Source of the DNA: a virus
Reading direction: 5' to 3' (one strand)
Length of the DNA stretch: 64,000 nucleotides
Virus record (IMG/VR): IMGVR_UViG_3300023035_000005
Coordinates: 92,708 to 156,707 of that record
Positions 80 through 62,090 of this stretch are shown piece by piece. Below the pieces are notes generated by a model. It was not told the DNA's origin. It did no database searches and was given only the letters and a program-made list of their open reading frames with translations. Position numbers and translations under genes: made by a program. Each line of letters opens with the position of its first letter. Positions within the stretch are counted from its first letter, which is position 1.

Positions 80-3000
80 CTGTTGTGGTTTAACAGAGGG
101 TGGCTCCTCCGAAGGAAGGAAAGCTCCCTCTGAAGATTATGTGAATTAGGAAAATTCAATTGATATAGAGGTGACGATAATTATTAAAATCTTTTTAATA
201 ATTATGTCGACTAGACATAAGAGAGTGTTGGATTTGATTACGCGTCATAATTTATTTAGTTATAGGTTTAAAATAATAAAGATTTTTGTATATAAGCTCA
301 GAATTTAAATATTTACCTACTGTAACTTTATAAATACTTAAATGTTTAGCTAATTCTACATTGTTTTTAAATTTTAAAATTAAATTACCATTTAAATCAA
401 ATATTCCTACTCCTAAGTTATATTTATTTTTATTTTCACTCATTATAGCCTTGGTATTCTCGGTATGACTTTTACCATACATAGGATTTTTACTACCTGG
501 TTTACTGATTTTTAATTTAGATTCCTCAGTATGTTTATAACCCAAATTATTATGGGCGATAAGACTAAAATTATATAAAGTATTGAAATCAAATTTTGAT
601 ATATAACTAGTTTCTAGTTCAGTTAATGATTTATGACTTATAATTTTACTTTCATATGTAAAATACTCATAAATATATAATTTAAACTTATCTATACCAT
701 ACTTGACAAAGGCTTTTTGCATGGCTACATTTGAATTATTTTTATACTTTAAATGTTCATTAATTCTAATAAAAAAGTCTTTAGCACTACCAATGTATTG
801 CTTATTATTAATAGTGTTTACCAAAGAATAAATACCACCTTTTCCCTTTAATATATCCTTATATGATTTTATACCATCTTTGTCGAGCTTCGCACTAAAT
901 CTAGAATTAAAATCGGCTTAGGCCCAGGATAAGAACCTAAATGTGAAGGAGAATTAGAAGAATAATATTTACGACTATAAATTAAAGAGTTATCTAAAAG
1001 AGTTAAAGGTAAAATACCCCTACGCATATAACTAAATGAATTCTCAAATTTTACTAACCTAGATTTCACACAATTAAAAAAAACAAAAATGGGGGGGATA
1101 TAAAACCCCTATATGCTGGTAGGAAAAGGGACATAAAACTATATTTAATTTTGTATTGGTTTAAACCGATAAATTTTATTATATATCAGACCCGAATTTA
1201 AATACTTACCTACTGTAACCTTAGAAATACCTAAATGTTTAGCTAACTCTACATTATTATTAAACTTCAAAATTAAGTTATCATCTAAATCATAAATTCC
1301 TACACCTAAAGGATATTTATTCTTCTTTTCACTCATAATCGCTTTAGTAGCTTCACGATGTTTTATACCAAACATCGGATTTAACTCACCAGGTTTACTA
1401 ATTAAAGCTAAGGCTTCTTCAGTATGAGTTTTACCAAACATAGGATGATTATTTTTATCCTTATAATAACGAAAATAAGATAAACAATAAGAAGATTAAA
1501 CTTTAGAACACCTAGCCACCGAACATGGTCAAACCTCACTCGCACTCACTCTTTCATTTACAAAAATATTCAAAATAACTTACCGTAGGGGTCTCCGAGA
1601 TAACTTAAACTCAACTTTATTTGAGTCAAACACGGTTACTCCTTTGTTCAACTTAGCATTTATAGTTTGCGGTGCAATTTTAAAGTAATCAGCGCAGGAT
1701 TGGGAATCCTTAAATATTCTAAATTTTTCTGATACCTGAGAGGATAAGCAAGCTCGCGAAGCAGGAACAACCTCTTCAGCTAAAATATAGAAAAGCTGTC
1801 GTTTAACTAGCGAACCGCCTGTTAAAGAATTTATTCGTAAGCCATCTTGATTTATTACATATATATCCTTCATATTTATTACTTCATTCACCAGGTTCGA
1901 AGATATTCCCCTAATCTCCTCCCCTCCGGGAGATACGAAAGTATCGCTGCTTTCTATATGTTTAAATGAAGATAAACGGTAGTTATTCATTCTTCTACTC
2001 ACCTTAATTATTAACTCTTTACCTAATTTTGTTAGATGTTTTCCTTTATAAATTAAAGAAGCAATAAACACTCAATCTAAGAAATCTTTATATTTTTTTG
2101 AAGCAAAACTAAGGTCAGATAGAAAGGGTATAAGTGTATCCACTATATAACTTAAGTGGTTAATATGGAATTGAACCACGAGTTTACCTTTAGTTGTGCA
2201 TTTACCCTTATCATAAATAGAAGTTCTTTGACTAATTATTTCTAGATATTGAGAAGATGCTTTTAATTTTACATCCTCTATCCCATAAGAATCTAAAAAT
2301 TCTTTAATCGCATGAACTAAAGGGGCTTGAACAAAAGTAAGCCCAAGGCTGAAGGAAATACTTATATCTTTTGTATCGACAAGTGAGAAACAACCCTCTC
2401 CCTCCAGAAATCCTAAGAATCAGTAAGGAGTTATTCTTATTGTATGAGTAGAAGGCATTACAAAATCCACTCTTTTACTATTCATCTGACCTTTTAAGTC
2501 AGTTATTAACTTTAATTTTTCAGACATAGATAAAGATTTGTTAAATTTTATAGCAACTGCTTCTTTAAATCCCAAGTACTCTAAGTACTTTGTACCATTT
2601 AAAGGGAATTTATCAAACATAGGTATTAAAATATTTTTGATATCGTTAATCCTCTTCACATTCAGATGAACAACCTTTTTAGATATATAAATACTACCAC
2701 AATTCAATCTATTTTTTATAAACTCTAAAACACCAGTGTCATCAATATGAACCCCAATAGTTAATATAAAACTAATAGTATTTCCTTTAGAAATATCTAT
2801 CAAAAAACATCCCTCACCATCTACAAAACCTACAAATCATTCTAAAAATTCAGATTCCGTCATATCTCTAAATCTAACTTTAATATTGCTTAAATTTGAT
2901 GTATTTTTTAAAATAAGTTCATCTTGGTCACTACGAGACAGCGCAGAACTACCTTTTGTACTAAATATAAATCCTTTATTTTCCATTTTTTGTATAAATT

Positions 3001-6000
3001 TTTAATTACCTCCGTAGAGGATAGGGTTTTGTAAAAATCCATTCCATTTTACAAAACCTAACTCAGGTTAGGTTTTGTAAAAATCCATTTTACAAAACCT
3101 AACTCAGGTTCGCACTGAGTATTCGGAGGTTGAAGCTCCATGTTTTACCTGTAAACTATACTCTTAAAAAAGCATAAGATGTACTCAATTCATCGCAACA
3201 GCTGTGTGTTTCTATAAAAAAAAGTACATCACTATAAACTTTTGGTGACAAACACCAAGGAGTAGAATGGCACGGATAAGTATTAAGGTGTATAATTGAA
3301 AGAGGAGGGAAGAGAGTGGGCGAATTCAACCATCTTTAATTTGGCTTCTTCTGTATGTTTATAACCTAAAGAGCTTGTAGCTGTAGCTTTAAAATTCTAA
3401 AGATTATCAAAATTAAATCTCTTAATATAACTAGTCTCTAGATCAGTTAAAGCTTGATGACTTATAATTTTACTTTCATATGTGAAATATTCAAATATAC
3501 AAAATTTCAATTTATCTAAGCCATACTTAGCAAATGCTTTTTGCAAAGCCAGATTAGACTTCTTATTTTCCAAATGTTCATTAAGTCTTAAATAAAAATC
3601 TTTGGCGCTTCCTATATATTGATTGCCGTTTACTGTATTTATAAAAGAATAAATACCTCCTTTGTCTTTTAAGAATATTCTATAAGATTTAATACTATCT
3701 TTATCATTTAGATTATTAATAGTTAAAACTGGAAGAGGTAAATCAGATGATTGTAAATCAGAATTTGAAGTAGAATAATATCTATCACTAGCTTTCGTAC
3801 CAACTTTTCATCTAGATATTGTATAAAGATAACCACAGTTTGTAAGAACTAAAGGGTTCGCACCAATGGTAGAAACGCTACTATAGTTCAGCATATATGA
3901 TCCCATTTTTTATTAGTTGGCATTTACAAGCCAATTTGGACTATACCTTATCTAATATAAATACTTATATTAAATGATCACGTCTAGTCTCTGAAGGGTT
4001 TAACATTATATGTTAACTTCCCTGCTGATTGTCCTATTCTCTAATTAGGGTTTTCCAGCAATTTGTGATCTTTAATGAGACCAAATCTTATTAGTAGCCT
4101 CTGCTAAATCAATATCTATACTATCTAAGCATTCACCTTAGGTTTTCCAACTTGTCTTAACTAAAATATAGCTAAGGTTGTTCAAGGGATAGCAAGGTTG
4201 TAAATAATAGAGTATGAACATTCAATAGTTACATACTACAAACATATTTAGCTGTACTACCTTGCTTTCCCTCTTTTCTGCGAAGTAAACCACACAGAAA
4301 ATTTTATTTGGTGTATTTATTCATAATACTTTGAATATTTTTAAGATTATTAAATTGTTCTTCAGTCCATTTCCTCCGAAGGCGAAGATTTGCTTTTAAT
4401 TATATCAGCTGCTTTAACAAAAGATACGAAATCGGATTGTTTAGCGCTTTGAAGAGGATATTTTAGGAAAAAAGGTATAATTATATTATTCAAGATCTCG
4501 AAATTATTTAACTTCAAATCGACAGCATCGTTGTTTCTTTTTTTAACACTACCGCAACCTAAATAAGTTACTATTCTTTCCATTAGCAAAGTATCTCGGG
4601 AATGCTGAGTTATTTGAAAATGTAATCAAACCTTATAACTACTAGATAACTCAGGAGCCAGAGTGGACCTTTTCTCTACAGTAATAATATTAAAGCTACC
4701 TTCCCCATCTACGAATCCTACTACCCATTCAGGATGTATTTCTCTTTCCGGTACTTCTGGTCTCGGTTCGGGAACAAGATTTGGATATAATTCCTTCAAT
4801 TCTTCAGATATCCCTTTATTCAAATAATATCTAAGATTAAGAATCTTCATGAACCCTTGTTCACTTAAAGAGGGTTCCTCTTTAATAATTAATATAATTT
4901 GTCTAAATAATTCGAAGTCAGCATATTTTTTAGTTAATAAAGGATATGCAAGGAAATGAGGTATAACTTTCTCAAGTATATCACTTAGTTTACTAATAAT
5001 TAGCTTAGCGAAATTTTTATCGAAACTTATTACCCCTACGCCTCCAAAATACTCCTTAATACGATATAAAATATCTAAATCACGGGAATTCAATTTAATT
5101 TGAAAAACAGGTTGTAATTTTCAACCTAACCTGTATGCTTTGACTTTCGAAATTTTTATCACGAAGGATCCCTCACCATCAGTGAAACCTGTAATTCACT
5201 CAGGGTGAAGTAAAACCTTATTATGGGAATTTGTGGAACTATAGTGTCTTCTGGCTGCTGGTAATTTTCCCGCCCGTTCATTAAGTACGGGTTGCAATCC
5301 GTAAAAGAAACAAATTAAATCTCTAATAATATTCAAAATATAATTACAAATGTATATTAACATAAACATTGTAATTTTAATAACTTTAGCTGTAATATAG
5401 TTGCTAGCGAGGGCTGTGGATTTGTGACGATTAGCCTCTGCAAGATCGAAGGGCGGCCGATTAGTTTCTGCAATAGAACCTATAAAAAATATTATAAATA
5501 TAGGTAATAAAGGTAATATAAATCAAACAGCTCTTTGTGATTCTACATTTACAGTTAGATTTAAACTACCTGTTAACATAATTACTAATAATAAAGCTGA
5601 ACTTAATATTAGTTCATAACTAATTAACTGAGCAGTACTTCTAAGTGAACCTAAAAAAGCATATTTACTATTAGCACTTCCAGATTTGTTATTTTAATAC
5701 ATTTAATATTAATCCCGCACCTCGCGGTGCGGCTCAGACTAGGTTATGATCTATCTAATTTTTGTAGAATAGACCCCGAATACTCGTGGCAGCAAATTTA
5801 TATCTGCTAGTCGTTGAACGTTCCTCGCTGAGCGTGGTTTCGCTTCAAGTTGACTTAATATAATAAGTTATTCTTGAAATTCAATCGGTTTATTCTTAAT
5901 TACTCTCGCAATTAAGGGGCTTATCTTTTTATTTATTTAATGTGTACGCAACATGTATACGAAGAAGTGGCCACCTACAAGAAAAAAAAATACATTTTTT

Positions 6001-47294: not shown

Positions 47295-47365
47295 AGAATT
47301 ATGGAGGAATTGAACCTCAAACTTAAGATCTGCAATCAAAGTGTAGACCAACTACATCATAATTC
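47295..47365 (-). tRNA. trnC: tRNA-Cys(GCA)
   Basis: GAATTAT acceptor pairs with ATAATTC; TTGCAGA loop; GGTTCAATTCC T-arm. Confidence 0.85.
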
Positions 47366-56200: not shown

Positions 56201-59200
56201 ATTTCAGACCTTCTAGTAATTGTTAAATTAACCATAGAATTTCTTTCATAAATTTTTCCTCAACCTAAAAATTCTTGTATCTTTAACATTAAACCCGAAT
56301 CCCTACTATGTTGAGGAAGAGAAAAACTAAGAGTAACTGCAAAACCTATTAAATGTGTAACATTTTTTCGAACTAAACATATAAAAGTACCCTCAGCTTC
56401 TATAAATCCTATTAATCACTTTTTATTAATAGCCCCCCTGCAGACGGCGACTTCCGTAGACAGCGGAGTCGAATAAACATTTACTTCAGGTCTTTGTACA
56501 GGTGTAATATCAAACTCTTTTTTAAGAATTTCATTTAAACCATTATTCATAGAAGCTTTATAAGCTAATATTTCTTTTAAACCCTCAATTTTTAAATGTT
56601 TACCTTGATTCATTAAATTTACAACTTCTTTAAATAACAGATAATCAGCTCTTTTTTTCGTTAAAAGAGGGTAATTCTCAAAATGAGGTATAATATTGTT
56701 TGTAATATCTTTAAGGGATCTTACTGTATAAATCACAGATCTATTTCCTATTTTATTATTTTTAATTTGAAGTGTACCAACTTGAAAATAATTTTTAATC
56801 TGCTCTAACAATAAATAATCTTTAATATGAAGATGTATGGAAAAAATAGGAACAACTACGTACCCTGCTTTATAATTATTATTTTTTAAAATAGAAATAA
56901 TAAAAGAAGATTCTCCATCAGAGAATCCCGTAATATAATAAGGATCTAGAATTAATTCTAGACCTCCTGCGTTTAGTCTCTGAGAGGCTTCGATAGTGGA
57001 AAGACTTCTAACCCCTGCCGATTGTCCCCGTGCCAGTGGGGTAGGGGCCCCACAGGTTTCACCCCCCCTGGGGGGGGAAACTATTACAATTTTCACGTAA
57101 ACAGTTAAAAAAATTAAAAATAAAACGTATGTAACTACTATTATAGGGGATATTCCAGCATTAAGCAGGATTTTTAATACCACGTCACCGTGATATGGTC
57201 CTAAGTGTTTAAAACCTCCTCAAATGACCGTTTAATTTTGTATAATTTTTAATATATACTTATATCCTTTCAAATATATTTAGACTATGTCTTAAATTTT
57301 ATTAAATGCGCTGTATATAGCTAACATTATAAAATCTAGGGGTTATCGTGTTGAGCTTATTGCTGGTTTAACTCACTCATTAGTCGTTGAACGCCCTTAA
57401 TTCATTTTAATAAACCGAATTAAGTTCCGCTACAAATAATCTAATAACCCGGAAGTCTAATTATGTTATTAAATGTTTTTGTAATTTTCCCCTTTTGCCT
57501 CTAAATAATAATTTTATTATATTTAAGGAGCCCATTTTACAGTTTAGGGTAATATAATTTACTATAACGTATAGAATTTTGTAAATTATTTAATCATTTT
57601 ATATATTCAATATATTTTAACCCTACTAATTTTCATATACTACCCTCCGGACGTCCTAGCACAGGGCCAGTCCTGGGCGTCCGAAGGAGGCTGATATTAT
57701 TTTCTAAAGACCTTTATTTCATAGCGTCCTTTATAAGGTTTAGTGTAATTTTTACTTAATTTAAGTTTCTCATATTTAAGAATTTTATCAGCATAACTTC
57801 CTATACCTTCGGCAGCTTTTCTTATTGAACTATATTCCGTGAAAACCTTAGTTTCTAAGTCAAGGACGGTTACTTTCATACTCTTCTTTTTGGCTAAAAC
57901 ATTTTTATTTAAATTTGCCAAATGCTCCTTTAATATAGCTCTAGTAGCCTCGCTATGTTTAACTCCTATTCTGGCAGCTTTTATTTTAGCTTTAACACTT
58001 TCTGAAAGAACACGTCCAGTTAAAGTTGCTCTAATTTTAGCTTTAGTCTCTTCTAAAACTGCAAAACCAGCTCGGGATCCGGCTATTTTTAATATATTAT
58101 ATTCTGGTTTTAAATAATCAAGATAAAATTGTTCTCTTTCAATAACATTTTCACTATTACAATATTCTAGTATCTCTAACCTGAATTCAGAGTATCCATA
58201 TTTAATTATAGATTTATAAATTATACTACGTTTAGCCTGACTTTCTATAAATCTTAAAGAATAATAGCTATAAAGACGTCGTCCTAAATCTAAACTAGAG
58301 CCAATATACATTTTCCCCGATTTATTGTGTACCCATCTATAAACTCCTGATTTTTTTCTATTGTTTTTAATTGCAATTTTTTTATTTTCAGAAGCGTTAT
58401 CATAAATAACTACTGGGGTTACATTAAAGCTAGAATTCGAAATACCTGGACATAATCCCTCCCCCGAACTGTAACATCGTAATTGAAAAATATTATTTAA
58501 TACTATGCTTTTTAATACTATGCTCTTTAATGCTAGGCTTTTTTTACATGTGCTTCAGTATTTCATGTTTTTTTTTAGTTTATCTACCTTCGTAAAGGAT
58601 AACTCTTGCGAGTGGACTCAGAGTCGAACTGAGTACTTGGAGGGTGAAGCCCCCTATTTTTCCCATTAGACTTTAAATTATACTCTTAAAAAAGCATATA
58701 TAAAGTTATTGATATACCTAATTCGAGGCGAGTAGTGCCTCATAAAACGCAAAACCTGTTTTATCTTCAAAAAAGAAATTAAGTACACCACTATTAATTT
58801 TTAGCAGAGTATCCTTCTAATAGATGTAAGCCTGAAAAAAGACCTGAAAAAAGAGAGCAATCATATTTTTAACTTTTTGTTTTACGATCAGTTTCAACCT
58901 TAAATCTAAAATTAAAGCCTCAAAGAACTAAATCTATATTATTTGAGGCACAAGCTTTAACTGCATACGTAGAATAGCGTTTAACTTTTTACACGTCTAG
59001 CCTTTTCACGTTTAATCTTTTCTTGTTGTTTTAAGATTCGCTTAAGATAATAAAAACCCTCCCTTTTAGACATAATTTTTCGAAAATCTTTTTTTACTCT
59101 TTTATAAGTAAGAGGGTTATCTTTGACAAACTGAACAACACCGGGATATAGTGAAGGACACAAAAATCCTATGAGTCAATCTTTTAAGGAAAAATTTAAA

Positions 59201-62090
59201 GGATGTAAGCCTTCAAAAGAAAAGAAATTTATAACTGTTTGTACATCAGATTTAGAACTAACCCAAAACTGATTGAAACTATTAGTAGTGTCTATTTTTC
59301 TATTAGTTTTAAACACTAGTTTGAATGCTTCAAACAAATTTGTATGTATTCTTTGTTTTAATTGAAAACAACCATCATTATTACTTTTAATAAAGAAAGA
59401 ACCCTCTGAGCATGAAAATCCTACGATTCAATTTTTCAAAAAATGTAATAATGTGTATCCATTTGCATCTTCAGGTAATTCAAATATATTTTCAATATTA
59501 TCTTTTGAAGGTAAATCATCAAACACTTTTATATCATTTTTTAGTATATGCATAGCTAGGTTAAATTGATTAATTCTAGTTTCAGTTAAAAAGAAGATAT
59601 TATTATGTATTAATAAAGGAAATAATACTTCCTGTAATTCAGTTCTATTTATTACTAATTTACAACTTGGACTTCTTATATCTTTATATACATTTAACTT
59701 ACCTAACTTTAGAGTAGAATGGATATATTCTAAAGTTGAAATATCTTCAGAATGTAAAGAAATAACTAATTTCATTGTTATGAATCCTTTAGTTGTTTTA
59801 GTTATTTGAATATAACCATCACCATCTATTAACCCTACTAAAAAAGCTAAAAAAGAACTAGGTATAGTAACATAATCTTTCTTATCTAATATTTTATTCA
59901 TTTTCTTTAAAGCGTTTTTATGAACATTACCTATTGTAGGTAATATTGAATATAATAAAACCATACTAATACCCAAAACTGTAAATTTTATTGACTCAAC
60001 TATATCTTGTCCAATTCATGGAATAGCACTAATAAGGTTTGTAATACAAAAATAACCTATCATAATTAAGTGGTTGTTTTAAATGAACGTGTTCAATTTG
60101 AGTTAAGAGTTTGTATCTTTATTTCAAAGAAGAGTAGACTTTTATTCTTTTTATATACTCAAACATAGTTTTATACCGGTTATGTATCTATGTGTATTCT
60201 ATTTCTACTACTAAGTATCCACATCCCCTGCTTGGTTCACTATGAAATAAGGGGAAAGGATACGAACCACTAACCTATACTTTTGTGCGAAGCAGGCGTA
60301 GCTGTAAATAGAATAAAACGATAAAAATAAAGATTATTCACCTTTTAATTCATAATTTCTACCGTAATTCATACCAGATTTCAAAGTTAAAACTTTATCT
60401 CACCCTTCTTGAGTTAGGTGGGCTTTGTCTTTAATTAAGAAAGCAGCTTTAACAAAATCTAGATAATTTAAATTTTTATCCCCGTATAAAGGATATTTTT
60501 GAAAAAATGGAATAATAATATTAAATATATCCTCAAATTTTGATACAACTACTACTTTACAATTTATATTACTAGTAACCAATGTCCCACAACCTAAACT
60601 ATAAAGGATTAAATTTAAAAGTTCTTTATCCTTTTCATGCTGAGAGATTTTAAATTTTAATTTTACGGTTTGCCCTAATTTTGACCCGAGGTGTTTTTGT
60701 GTATGTATCATAAAAGATCCTTCAGCTTCTGTAAAACCTGCAATTCAATGAGGATTTAAAGATTTAGGTAATAGATTCTCAAAATTTGAAGTTGAAACTG
60801 GTTTAATGTTAGGGAAACTTTCCGCTAACACTTCCGTCAACCCATTACGCATAGCTGCTTTGATAGATAAAATTTCGTAAAAACCTTTATCCTTAAGATG
60901 CTCTTTTTTGTTCATAATTAGAGCTACTTTTTTAAAAAATTCATAATCTTCAGATTTTTTGGATAACAAAGGATATTTATCAAAAAATGGTATTAAAGTA
61001 TTAACTATTTGGGGTAAAGATGAAACAATGTATGAGCAAGAATTATTTTTGCTCTCATAGATACCTCCTACTCTTCCTAAAACTTCTCTTATTTTGCTCA
61101 ATAACTCCTTGTCCTTAGAGTGTAAATGAATTTGAAAATTAAGGCTGATAACTCAACCTAATTTCATTCTTTTATCTCTTCTAAAAAAAACAGAAAAGCA
61201 CCCCTCTCCGTCTACAAATCCTGTGACAAAATAAGGATTTATGGTTAAGGGTATTTCCTTCTGTTCCATATTCGCTTTTTGGGTAGATATTCTAACATGA
61301 AAGTCTCTTACACCAAATAAAGTAATACATTTGACCACTTTACACAGTAAATATTTCAGATGTATACTAGGTTGAAGGCGAGGTAAAATCTTACTTAAAT
61401 AATAAGTGTGAGCACTCCTCCTTCAGAGGGAAGAAACCAAAATAAGAAGTAAATAGATTCTAAATACAAACTCAAAACCCGACACTTCCTCTTTTTCGTT
61501 CTTTCTTGTTCTAATTAAAAAATTAGACTCTGCGTCACAAAGACCTACGAATCATTCTATAAATTTTGTATCTAAAGATAACTCTGGTAATTCTTCATTG
61601 ACACCAGATGATAAAACATTAATCTCATTAGTTACACTATTGTCTGCGCAAGCGACCTTAGATTTGTAAAAGGTAGCTACAAAGTAATAATATAAATCTA
61701 AATAAATTTGAGAGTAATATAATAATATTGGTGATATTAAAAAAGTAATACATTAAACCTTTGTTTCTAACAACCCAGTATGAAGAATTTATTAACCTAA
61801 AATAAGGTTTATGCTTACGAACAATACTGAAATATTTACTGATATTAAAAAAGGAAGGAGGCGCGACTCTCCTTTCACTAAATTTATTTAATGGATTGGA
61901 CTATATCTTCATTTTCTTAACCCACATAACAAGTGTATTATTATGTAAAAAAAGTTCAATGTACCACGTATAGTCTCTGAGGGTTTTAACATACTATGTT
62001 AACTTCCCTGCTGATTGTCTTATAATCATAAGAGTTTCCAGCAATTAGTGGTATTTTTCTACAGCTATTACTTCGCTGTTTAACCGTAGC
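49822..62090 (-). CDS. cob: apocytochrome b, 5' part beyond window end; exons 62090-62083, 60046-59994, 57227-57212, 55082-54970, 52385-52226, 50209-49822
   Basis: ATV|[17 protein letters not shown]|FIWGGF|[20 protein letters not shown]|SSNPLG..GDSDNYI|[26 protein letters not shown]. Confidence 0.95.
50339..51832 (-). CDS. atypical LAGLIDADG endonuclease with AP2-like C-terminus, in intron cob-779 (intron 50210-52225)
   Basis: [10 protein letters not shown] and [10 protein letters not shown]; open in code 4 to TAG at 50339. Confidence 0.75.
52226..52385 (-). CDS. cob: cob exon
   Basis: [35 protein letters not shown]. Confidence 0.95.
52687..53484 (-). CDS. LAGLIDADG_2 endonuclease with degenerate motifs, in intron cob-619
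   Basis: [38 protein letters not shown]. Confidence 0.75.
53465..54969 (-). CDS. LAGLIDADG endonuclease in intron cob-619 (intron 52386-54969)
   Basis: [10 protein letters not shown] and [10 protein letters not shown]; [13 protein letters not shown]-terminal module. Confidence 0.82.
54970..55082 (-). CDS. cob: cob exon
   Basis: [37 protein letters not shown]. Confidence 0.95.
55188..56036 (-). CDS. LAGLIDADG endonuclease in intron cob-506
   Basis: [10 protein letters not shown] and [10 protein letters not shown]. Confidence 0.88.
   Translation of the reverse strand: MWKNNLKLRTTFYNSFKKNENLDNKGLRIYFLTYAYIVGLFEGDGYFSITKKGIYLLYEVGIELSKKDVQLIYKIKSLLGVGEISFRNRGEIEMVSLRIRNKNHLKEFILPIFDKYPMFSNKQYDYLRFRDCLTSNIIKYEELPPYTRGTESLNDIQSIINAPYFSSWLIGFIEAEGCFSIYKLKKDEDYLVASFDVSQKDAEILLSAIARYLSFTTAIHCDKFNCYKLKVTGVRSIENVIKFLKFAPVKLLGNKKLQYLLWLKELRTIDRYNKKIKIPSNY
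56023..57211 (-). CDS. second LAGLIDADG endonuclease in intron cob-506 (intron 55083-57211), in frame with the exon
   Basis: [10 protein letters not shown] and [10 protein letters not shown]. Confidence 0.85.
57212..57227 (-). CDS. cob: cob exon (16 nt)
   Basis: (F)IWGGF. Confidence 0.9.
57697..58566 (-). CDS. GIY-YIG endonuclease with own ATG, inserted into the LAGLIDADG ORF of intron cob-490
   Basis: [19 protein letters not shown]. Confidence 0.87.
58610..58687 (-). pseudogene. trnW: tRNA-Trp(UCA)-like element, degenerate
   Basis: AAGAGTATAATTT..GGGG CTTCACC CTCC AAGTA CTCAG TTCGACT CTGAG; 3' acceptor strand mismatched. Confidence 0.62.
58981..59993 (-). CDS. LAGLIDADG endonuclease in intron cob-490 (intron 57228-59993); native C-terminus displaced to 57537-57629
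   Basis: [10 protein letters not shown] and [10 protein letters not shown]. Confidence 0.85.
59994..60046 (-). CDS. cob: cob exon
   Basis: [17 protein letters not shown]. Confidence 0.93.
60334..61338 (-). CDS. LAGLIDADG endonuclease in intron cob-437 (intron 60047-62082)
   Basis: [10 protein letters not shown] and [10 protein letters not shown]; a further remnant ([10 protein letters not shown]) near 61400-61600. Confidence 0.85.
62083..62090 (-). CDS. cob: cob 8-nt micro-exon GCTACGGT
   Basis: Encodes AT(V); downstream guide GTAATAGCTGTAG pairs with both flanks. Confidence 0.85.

Follow-up and report, generated by a model that had tools for sequence, protein, structure and literature searches.

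In the cytochrome b (cob) group I intron of Podospora curvicolla, an optional mobile GIY-YIG open reading frame (ORF) is said to reside inside a LAGLIDADG ORF. Copies of host-gene segments travel with mobile ORF elements at atp6 of Allomyces macrogynus and in the mobile ORFs (mORFs) of Glomus, and the t-elements of plant mitochondria are transfer RNA (tRNA)-like structures that direct cuts by ribonucleases P and Z (RNase P and RNase Z) at mRNA ends. The complex introns of Ophiostomatales contain 'secondary invader' endonuclease genes and show core creep, and cob-490 is a frequently occupied, complex intron site (PMC12308204). Expression of internal intron ORFs is recognised as a problem, with in-frame fusion and alternative splicing as the routes (PMC12308204). 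Here we analyse a 64,000-nucleotide (nt) stretch, hereafter the window (positions 92,708 to 156,707 of IMG/VR record IMGVR_UViG_3300023035_000005). The DNA is mitochondrial, of fungal origin, and uses genetic code 4; in it a GIY-YIG homing endonuclease gene with a tRNA-like leader is nested in the LAGLIDADG gene of a cob intron. The insertion is probably a mobile GIY-YIG cassette with a captured translation leader of nad6, in which the trnW part is a decaying passenger.

As in Podospora curvicolla, a mobile, optional GIY-YIG gene has entered the resident LAGLIDADG of a cytochrome b group I intron. The Podospora insertion is reportedly a fused LAGLIDADG–GIY-YIG frame, as is the homologue P0009, whereas the window copy is unfused and has its own ATG behind a leader. 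With the mobile ORFs of Allomyces and Glomus the cassette shares a free-standing endonuclease gene that moves together with duplicated host mitochondrial DNA; there, however, the duplicate encodes a C-terminus and so repairs the gene that was invaded, and here it is a non-coding segment, the tRNA and 5' untranslated region (5' UTR) of a different gene. Extra homing endonuclease genes enter resident intron ORFs in Ophiostomatales as well, but that account describes no leader that was borrowed from a host gene and contains a tRNA relic (PMC12308204). A literature search turned up no report of endonuclease genes preceded by a trnW/nad6 leader.

The host gene is a LAGLIDADG ORF (60063-58981, minus strand; PF00961 in Pfam) that starts in frame with residues of the cob exon. 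Nearly all of its best 120 homologues cover only ~80% of its length. The native part ends at ..FSFEGLHPL; in the intact homologues P0122, P0134 and P0140, which are 95-97% identical, the native end continues from this motif with V or I, and the window ORF departs from them after FEGLHPL into 71 foreign codons. The missing native end was found in frame downstream (Table 1). A contig of a close relative, L035, carries the host LAGLIDADG gene uninterrupted and provides the empty-site allele, in which the target reads GGCTTACATCCTTTAGTAGGGTT. Window positions 60100-59197 align to L035 1364-2268 with 97.1% identity and positions 57629-57300 to L035 2266-2598 with 95.8% identity; the two L035 alignments overlap in the triplet TTA, which is present at both insert joints. 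Because both flanks align end to end with L035, the insert can be delimited as a block of 1,567 nt. The insertion is optional and its joints are precise, and the rest of the host gene stands displaced downstream of it. The nested anatomy proposed in an earlier sequence-only reading of this DNA, with the break after FEGLHPL, the native tail at 57629-57537 and the nested ATG at 58566, was borne out, and L035 fixes the joints.

The nested protein carries a GIY-YIG domain at residues 73-157 (PF01541, 32.3 bits against a cut-off of 22.6), together with a weak NUMOD1 match of 18.1 bits that falls under its own cut-off. Its ATG lies 20 nt after a short hairpin with a UACG loop. The foreign tail that now closes the host ORF recurs in P0121 (78% identity over the whole protein) and P0177 (63%), and it was found in no ordinary homologue of the host LAGLIDADG and in no Pfam family.

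The source of the leader was traced by scanning metagenome contigs with a single pattern, AAGAGTATA-N70-100-CCTYTACGRAGG. Four of the 17 matches (L012, L020, L023 and L027) lie in AT-rich mitochondrial DNA of fungi and have the same hairpin after trnW(UCA); the other 13 were rejected as chance matches in unrelated DNA of higher G+C, and the same scan of viral contigs gave no match. The 64-kb window contains neither trnW nor nad6, and the four metagenomic loci served as surrogates for the host's own trnW. The trnW(UCA) upstream of the hairpin is degenerate in L020 and intact in the other three, where both ARAGORN and Rfam recognise it (58-60 bits). In L012 the ORF behind the hairpin, at a distance of 23 nt, is nad6 (PF00499, E 3e-31), and L020 and L023 have the same nad6 N-terminus at the start of an intron-interrupted ORF. 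The leader of the cob cassette (copy 2) aligns with L023 and L012 at 79-82% identity over 130-139 nt (E 2e-27), running from the spacer ATATGCTTTTTT through the tRNA, the spacer GAGTTAT and the hairpin CCTTTACGAAGG to the ATG, and the endonuclease ATG occupies the position of the nad6 ATG. As the alignment is collinear from spacer to ATG, the tRNA-like element is the middle of a captured trnW–nad6 junction, and on these comparisons we regard the origin of the leader as settled. The descent from trnW(UCA) that had been proposed from the window alone is thereby confirmed against true trnW loci.

A second leader of the same origin (copy 1) stands in a nad1 intron of the window, where the nuclease families are reversed: the host is a GIY-YIG gene in two parts (3906-3397 and 1441-1145), and the invader that separates them is a LAGLIDADG gene at 2986-1580. 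The ORFs and Pfam matches thus agree with the sequence-only reading, which had described the two cassettes as mirror images and their leaders as homologous. Within the 64-kb window the two tRNA-like segments are 76% identical over 83 nt (E 4e-12), and a third copy was not found there. Copy 1 matches the true trnW loci at 88% over 75 nt (E 9e-20) as far as the end of the T stem, and its homology to them restarts at the hairpin, after a palindromic insert. This insert, a tandemly duplicated palindrome, stands in place of the 3' acceptor strand; the duplicated 46-nt unit (window 3026-3105, minus strand) consists of the 3' strand of the T stem and the palindrome TAGGTTTTGTAAAATGGATTTTTACAAAACCTA, which a related cassette, L032, carries as a single copy at the corresponding place. 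Both window leaders also have the block TATCCTYTACGRAGGTA right before the ATG, and a module of ~100 nt ahead of the trnW–nad6 part is likewise common to the leaders of both nuclease families; this module is without match to the true trnS–trnW loci.

The tRNA part of copy 2 reads AAGAGUA / UA / D region with an 8-nt insertion / GGGGG-CUUCACC-CUCC / CUCAG-UUCGACU-CUGAG / UCCACUC. Its 5' acceptor strand and T stem are the same as in true trnW, the T arm and anticodon arm can both form, and the UCA anticodon is present. The D loop has 8 nt more than that of true trnW, A30 has become G with pairing kept as G.U, and A37 has become C. In the 3' acceptor strand three of the seven positions are substituted (TACTCTT became TCCACTC), and against AAGAGUA only four of the seven pair, non-contiguously, instead of forming a 7-bp helix. 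In the minimum free energy fold the anticodon-like and T hairpins form together with a new hairpin, ACUC-GCAA-GAGU, and the acceptor helix is absent. A search of 501 nt (58400-58900) with the Rfam tRNA model gave no match to copy 2, even with the threshold relaxed to E<=10. ARAGORN reported neither copy at default settings, and copy 2 was unrecognised also at -ps80 and -ps60. Copy 1 scores 30.7 bits with the Rfam model over model positions 7-64, without the acceptor stem (the gathering score of RF00005 is 29 bits). Neither the tRNA-like segment nor the UTR region folded with a better energy than shuffled sequences, and thermodynamics was left unused as evidence. Both RNase P and RNase Z depend on the acceptor/T-arm helix, so cleavage by either is not expected in copy 2. 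The trnW part of copy 2 is thus most likely a decayed, disabled relic with no working processing site.

Relatives of the two cassettes place this relic in a series. Three further GIY-YIG cassettes occupy the same cob site with the same 3' joint. That of L030 (Hypoxylon sp., 76% protein identity) retains a near-complete tRNA with a G.U-paired acceptor, which scores 34.7 bits and is called tRNA-Trp by ARAGORN; in L001 (90%) and L004 (74%) the T arm is absent, though their ORFs are intact. Among LAGLIDADG cassettes, L032-34 (57% protein identity to copy 1) have a tRNA body nearly equal to true trnW, and in L032 the 3' acceptor strand has been replaced by the same palindrome as in copy 1. The Rfam scores descend from 58-60 bits for true trnW through 39 for L032 and 34.7 for L030 to 30.7 for copy 1, and the model did not match the leaders of copy 2, L001 or L004; ARAGORN gave a concordant picture. 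The tRNA part ranges from nearly intact to almost gone, with ORFs intact without it, and we therefore read the cloverleaf as a decay series. The sequence-only reading had noted, correctly on sequence comparison, that both window copies keep the T stem and the TCA anticodon and lose the 3' acceptor strand, and it had tied its fate to a significant alignment and to decay under structural constraint. The alignment is significant, but no constraint is seen on the decay of the cloverleaf as a whole. The idea that the 3' acceptor strand was specifically targeted for inactivation was dropped, since L030 keeps its G.U-paired acceptor (ARAGORN); the 3' acceptor pattern fits an ordinary decay series equally well.

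Two of the true loci are of interest in themselves. In L020 (326-400) the degenerate trnW ahead of nad6 has an 8-nt anticodon loop and two acceptor mismatches; it was undetected by ARAGORN at default and gave no Rfam tRNA match at E<=1. In L027 (5046-6624) an intact trnW, the leader and the hairpin are followed by ORFs of 54, 133 and 290 codons without Pfam match, which may be another cargo behind the trnW–nad6 leader. Further leader copies were found in none of the fetched loci beyond those listed here.

Other parts of the leader have fared differently from the cloverleaf. We compared six cassette leaders (copy 1, L032, copy 2, L030, L001 and L004) with the four true trnW loci. The UACG-loop hairpin is kept in all six, its loop-closing pair being U-A or C-G. 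Copy 2 and L030 have the CCUU/AAGG state of the true loci, and copy 1, L032, L001 and L004 have CCUC-UACG-GAGG, in which both sides of the loop-closing pair have changed. Hairpin and ATG are 18-22 nt apart in the six leaders and 21-23 nt apart at the four true loci, counted for L032 to its second ATG (its first lies at 13 nt). A 5' block, CUUUUU(U)AAGAGUAUA, is present in all six leaders and forms an 8-9 bp hairpin from the 12-nt spacer and the 5' acceptor strand, as it does at the true loci. The block was also considered as a promoter, and there was no convincing match to the consensus of promoters in yeast and Neurospora. Also common to all six leaders is an anticodon-like hairpin whose loop is UUCA; three of its five pairs have changed on both sides. 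Its covariation score is 0.533 against 0.274 for shuffles, of which 6 in 500 reach 0.533; this is suggestive only, because there are six distinct rows and part of the change in L001 and L004 consists of deletions. For the LAGLIDADG pair, identity is 95% from hairpin to ATG and 78% over the ORF.

Table 1. Coordinates of the nested cob cassette, its host gene and the sister cassette in nad1 (window numbering unless a contig is named)
Feature	Position	Strand	Basis
Host cob-intron LAGLIDADG ORF, native part	59197..60063	-	ORF list; PF00961; 97.1% DNA identity to L035
Whole inserted block: new tail, pseudo-target copy, leader, GIY-YIG gene, 3' spacer	57630..59196	-	Absent from L035
Foreign 71-codon tail and stop, new end of the host LAGLIDADG ORF	58981..59196	-	Common to P0121 and P0177
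Diverged copy of the uninterrupted target site (GGCTTACATCTATTAGAAGGATAC)	58809..58832	-	19/24 identical to L035 GGCTTACATCCTTTAGTAGGGTTA
Upstream leader module, starting AAAAATTAATAGTGGTGTAC	58700..58802	-	Aligned with copy 1; in L001, L004, L030, L032
12-nt spacer ATATGCTTTTTT	58688..58699	-	Identical to the spacer ahead of real trnW (blastn, L012 and L023)
Decayed trnW(UCA) copy	58610..58687	-	Alignment to true trnW; no Rfam or ARAGORN match; fold
nad6 5'-UTR hairpin CCUU-UACG-AAGG	58587..58598	-	Identical in four true trnW loci
GIY-YIG homing endonuclease gene (predicted), 289 codons	57697..58566	-	ORF list; PF01541; 659 homologues
48-nt GC-rich imperfect palindrome (CCTCCTTCGGACG...CGTCCGGAGGG) in the cassette 3' spacer	57643..57690	-	Absent from L001
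Displaced native C-terminal end of the host LAGLIDADG (LVGLKYIEY...YPKL*)	57537..57629	-	Homologue C-termini; L035 DNA 95.8%
Sister leader (copy 1) before the LAGLIDADG invader, nad1 intron	2984..3179	-	Alignment; Rfam
Regions showing the two LAGLIDADG-cassette sites	L032:2150-2260, 3829-4060; L031:2380-2500; window 3340-3400		

These observations suggest how the cassette may have arisen and how its gene may be expressed. A trnW–nad6 junction, comprising the 12-nt spacer, trnW, a short spacer, the UACG hairpin and an AT-rich stretch, would have been captured in such a way that the endonuclease ATG replaced the nad6 ATG. The host LAGLIDADG ORF would be readable from the upstream cob exon, and the nested GIY-YIG gene would not be reached by run-through; located past the stop codon of the host ORF, it needs a start of its own. 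The nad6 leader would supply the initiation context, marking the start site for the mitochondrial translation system, and might perhaps also stabilise the GIY-YIG mRNA; that it drives translation of the gene we infer from its sequence and position. The trnW would have come along as a passenger in the same capture event and would have been decaying since. Two unrelated nuclease families have the same leader and the LAGLIDADG cassette occupies two sites, which together indicate that leader and ORF form a mobile unit. Those two sites lie ~50 codons apart in one host GIY-YIG gene, which is cut after KLKFCI in L032 and after KLKM(VE) in the window and in L031.

Several observations weigh against a leader with a role in translation. 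The GIY-YIG gene of L010, at the same cob site, has another 5' arrangement and follows the LAGLIDADG ORF directly, with no leader between them; the LAGLIDADG cassette of L031 (65% protein identity) is without the trnW/nad6 part; and fused LAGLIDADG–GIY-YIG ORFs exist (P0009). In L027 the same leader precedes ORFs other than nad6, and the leader may have come from a donor other than the present host. In the pair of copy 2 and L030 the leader is kept no better than the gene (87-89% against 90% nucleotide identity for the ORF), and the hairpin has only 4 bp, with a folding energy indistinguishable from that of shuffled sequence.

The most probable of the alternatives is that the trnW–nad6 piece was copied by chance during illegitimate insertion or repair and has no function, its conserved parts reflecting too short a time for decay. 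We consider this unlikely. The many indels and insertions in the leaders (8 nt in the D loop, the palindromes, ~80 nt in L001) speak for passive filler, as do the similar identities of leader and ORF in the GIY-YIG pair and the relatives that do without the leader or are fused in frame. Such filler does not readily explain why the ORF starts at the position of the nad6 ATG in six of six leaders, nor why the hairpin survives in all six with a two-sided change and the anticodon-like hairpin shows two-sided changes at three of its five pairs. It is also difficult to reconcile with the same leader and the same left boundary serving two unrelated nuclease families, or with a leader that has persisted as the LAGLIDADG proteins diverged (57% identity) and that, from hairpin to ATG, is more similar than the ORF behind it.

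Alternatively, the relic may have been put to a new use, a reading to which we give little credence. The 5' block, the anticodon arm with its invariant UUCA loop and the UACG hairpin would then be three hairpins kept as cis-elements that serve the nested endonuclease mRNA in its expression or stability, while the acceptor would be kept broken and the intron RNA thereby uncut; a trnW-specific factor might bind the anticodon-like arm.

The sequence-only reading spoke of a tRNA-like leader. Taken as a model, this would be a punctuation or processing signal at which RNase P and/or RNase Z free a GIY-YIG mRNA with a defined 5' end. The source trnW is real, and its 3' cleavage presumably makes the 5' end of the nad6 mRNA, to judge from the layout; copy 1, copy 2, L030 and L032 have retained an intact T arm, and the acceptor helix that survives in L030 through G.U pairing, together with the ARAGORN call, suggests that young cassettes may have been processed. 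Like a t-element, the relic is a tRNA-derived sequence beside an mRNA start. T-elements, however, keep the acceptor/T-arm helix, and copy 2 does not: its fold lacks that helix and neither Rfam nor ARAGORN recognises it. Nor is the cloverleaf kept among the relatives, given that a palindrome replaces the 3' acceptor in copy 1 and L032 and that L001 and L004 maintain intact ORFs without a T arm. A cut inside the intron before splicing would moreover be expected to sever the cob pre-mRNA. Since the element sits inside a longer copied block and is no free-standing tRNA mimic, this model is not supported, and we judge punctuation very unlikely for copy 2. Least probable of all is ongoing gene conversion, in which a resident trnW–nad6 locus would repeatedly overwrite the tRNA-like part and preserve it without any function in the cassette: only two D-loop differences separate the tRNA body of L032 from true trnW at 57% protein identity to copy 1, copy 2 and L030 share the CCUU/AAGG hairpin with the true loci while the 90%-identical sister L001 has CCUC/GAGG, and a Logan contig (L029) ends inside the tRNA-like body as expected of a repeat, but conversion would also tend to restore the 3' acceptor strand, which has homology on both sides and is never restored.

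The captured leader is thus probably a working part of a mobile cassette, and further features of the insert bear on how such cassettes are built. A diverged copy of the target site that spans the insertion point stands just upstream of the leader. Such a copy also precedes the leader in L001 (1-25), L004 (~2285-2310), L029 and L030, and in L032 a comparable copy, there of the flank of its own host (KAFANYDLSQFKFCT), is diverged and repeated in tandem ahead of the leader. These copies suggest that nested cassettes carry old flank sequence along. At the other end, between the GIY-YIG stop and the native host tail, the GC-rich palindrome is a separate small insertion of the GC-cluster type, as L001 is otherwise collinear and lacks it.

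The window has the gene order cob, cox1, nad1, all on the minus strand, and contains many group I introns. The nearest named relative of the GIY-YIG gene comes from Hypoxylon sp. CO27-5, and on this protein similarity the host is likely a member of the Xylariales. At window 47295-47365 (minus strand) a full-length tRNA is detected weakly by Rfam (29.7 bits) and not by ARAGORN. A motif R-x-[YF]-Y/S-S-[ST] occurs at window 58465-58480 (minus strand) and in many other intron ORFs, among them window 4350-5579, an L020 ORF and P0078, with the variants RCYSS, RRHYSST, KKFYST and KRFYST. It lies ~30-130 residues N-terminal of the nuclease domains of unrelated intron ORFs and may be a shared processing site.

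How endonuclease genes nested in intron ORFs are translated is a practical question for fungal mitochondria. For annotation, capture of a trnW–nad6 junction explains spurious partial trnW matches inside introns, and the cassettes offer a clean example of the decay of a tRNA gene after it has been copied out of context. The UACG hairpin ~20 nt upstream of the ATG is a candidate translation or stability signal of nad6. If our interpretation is correct, a portable leader derived from nad6 and used by two nuclease families in several species would be a third route to the expression of nested endonuclease genes, beside in-frame fusion and alternative splicing.

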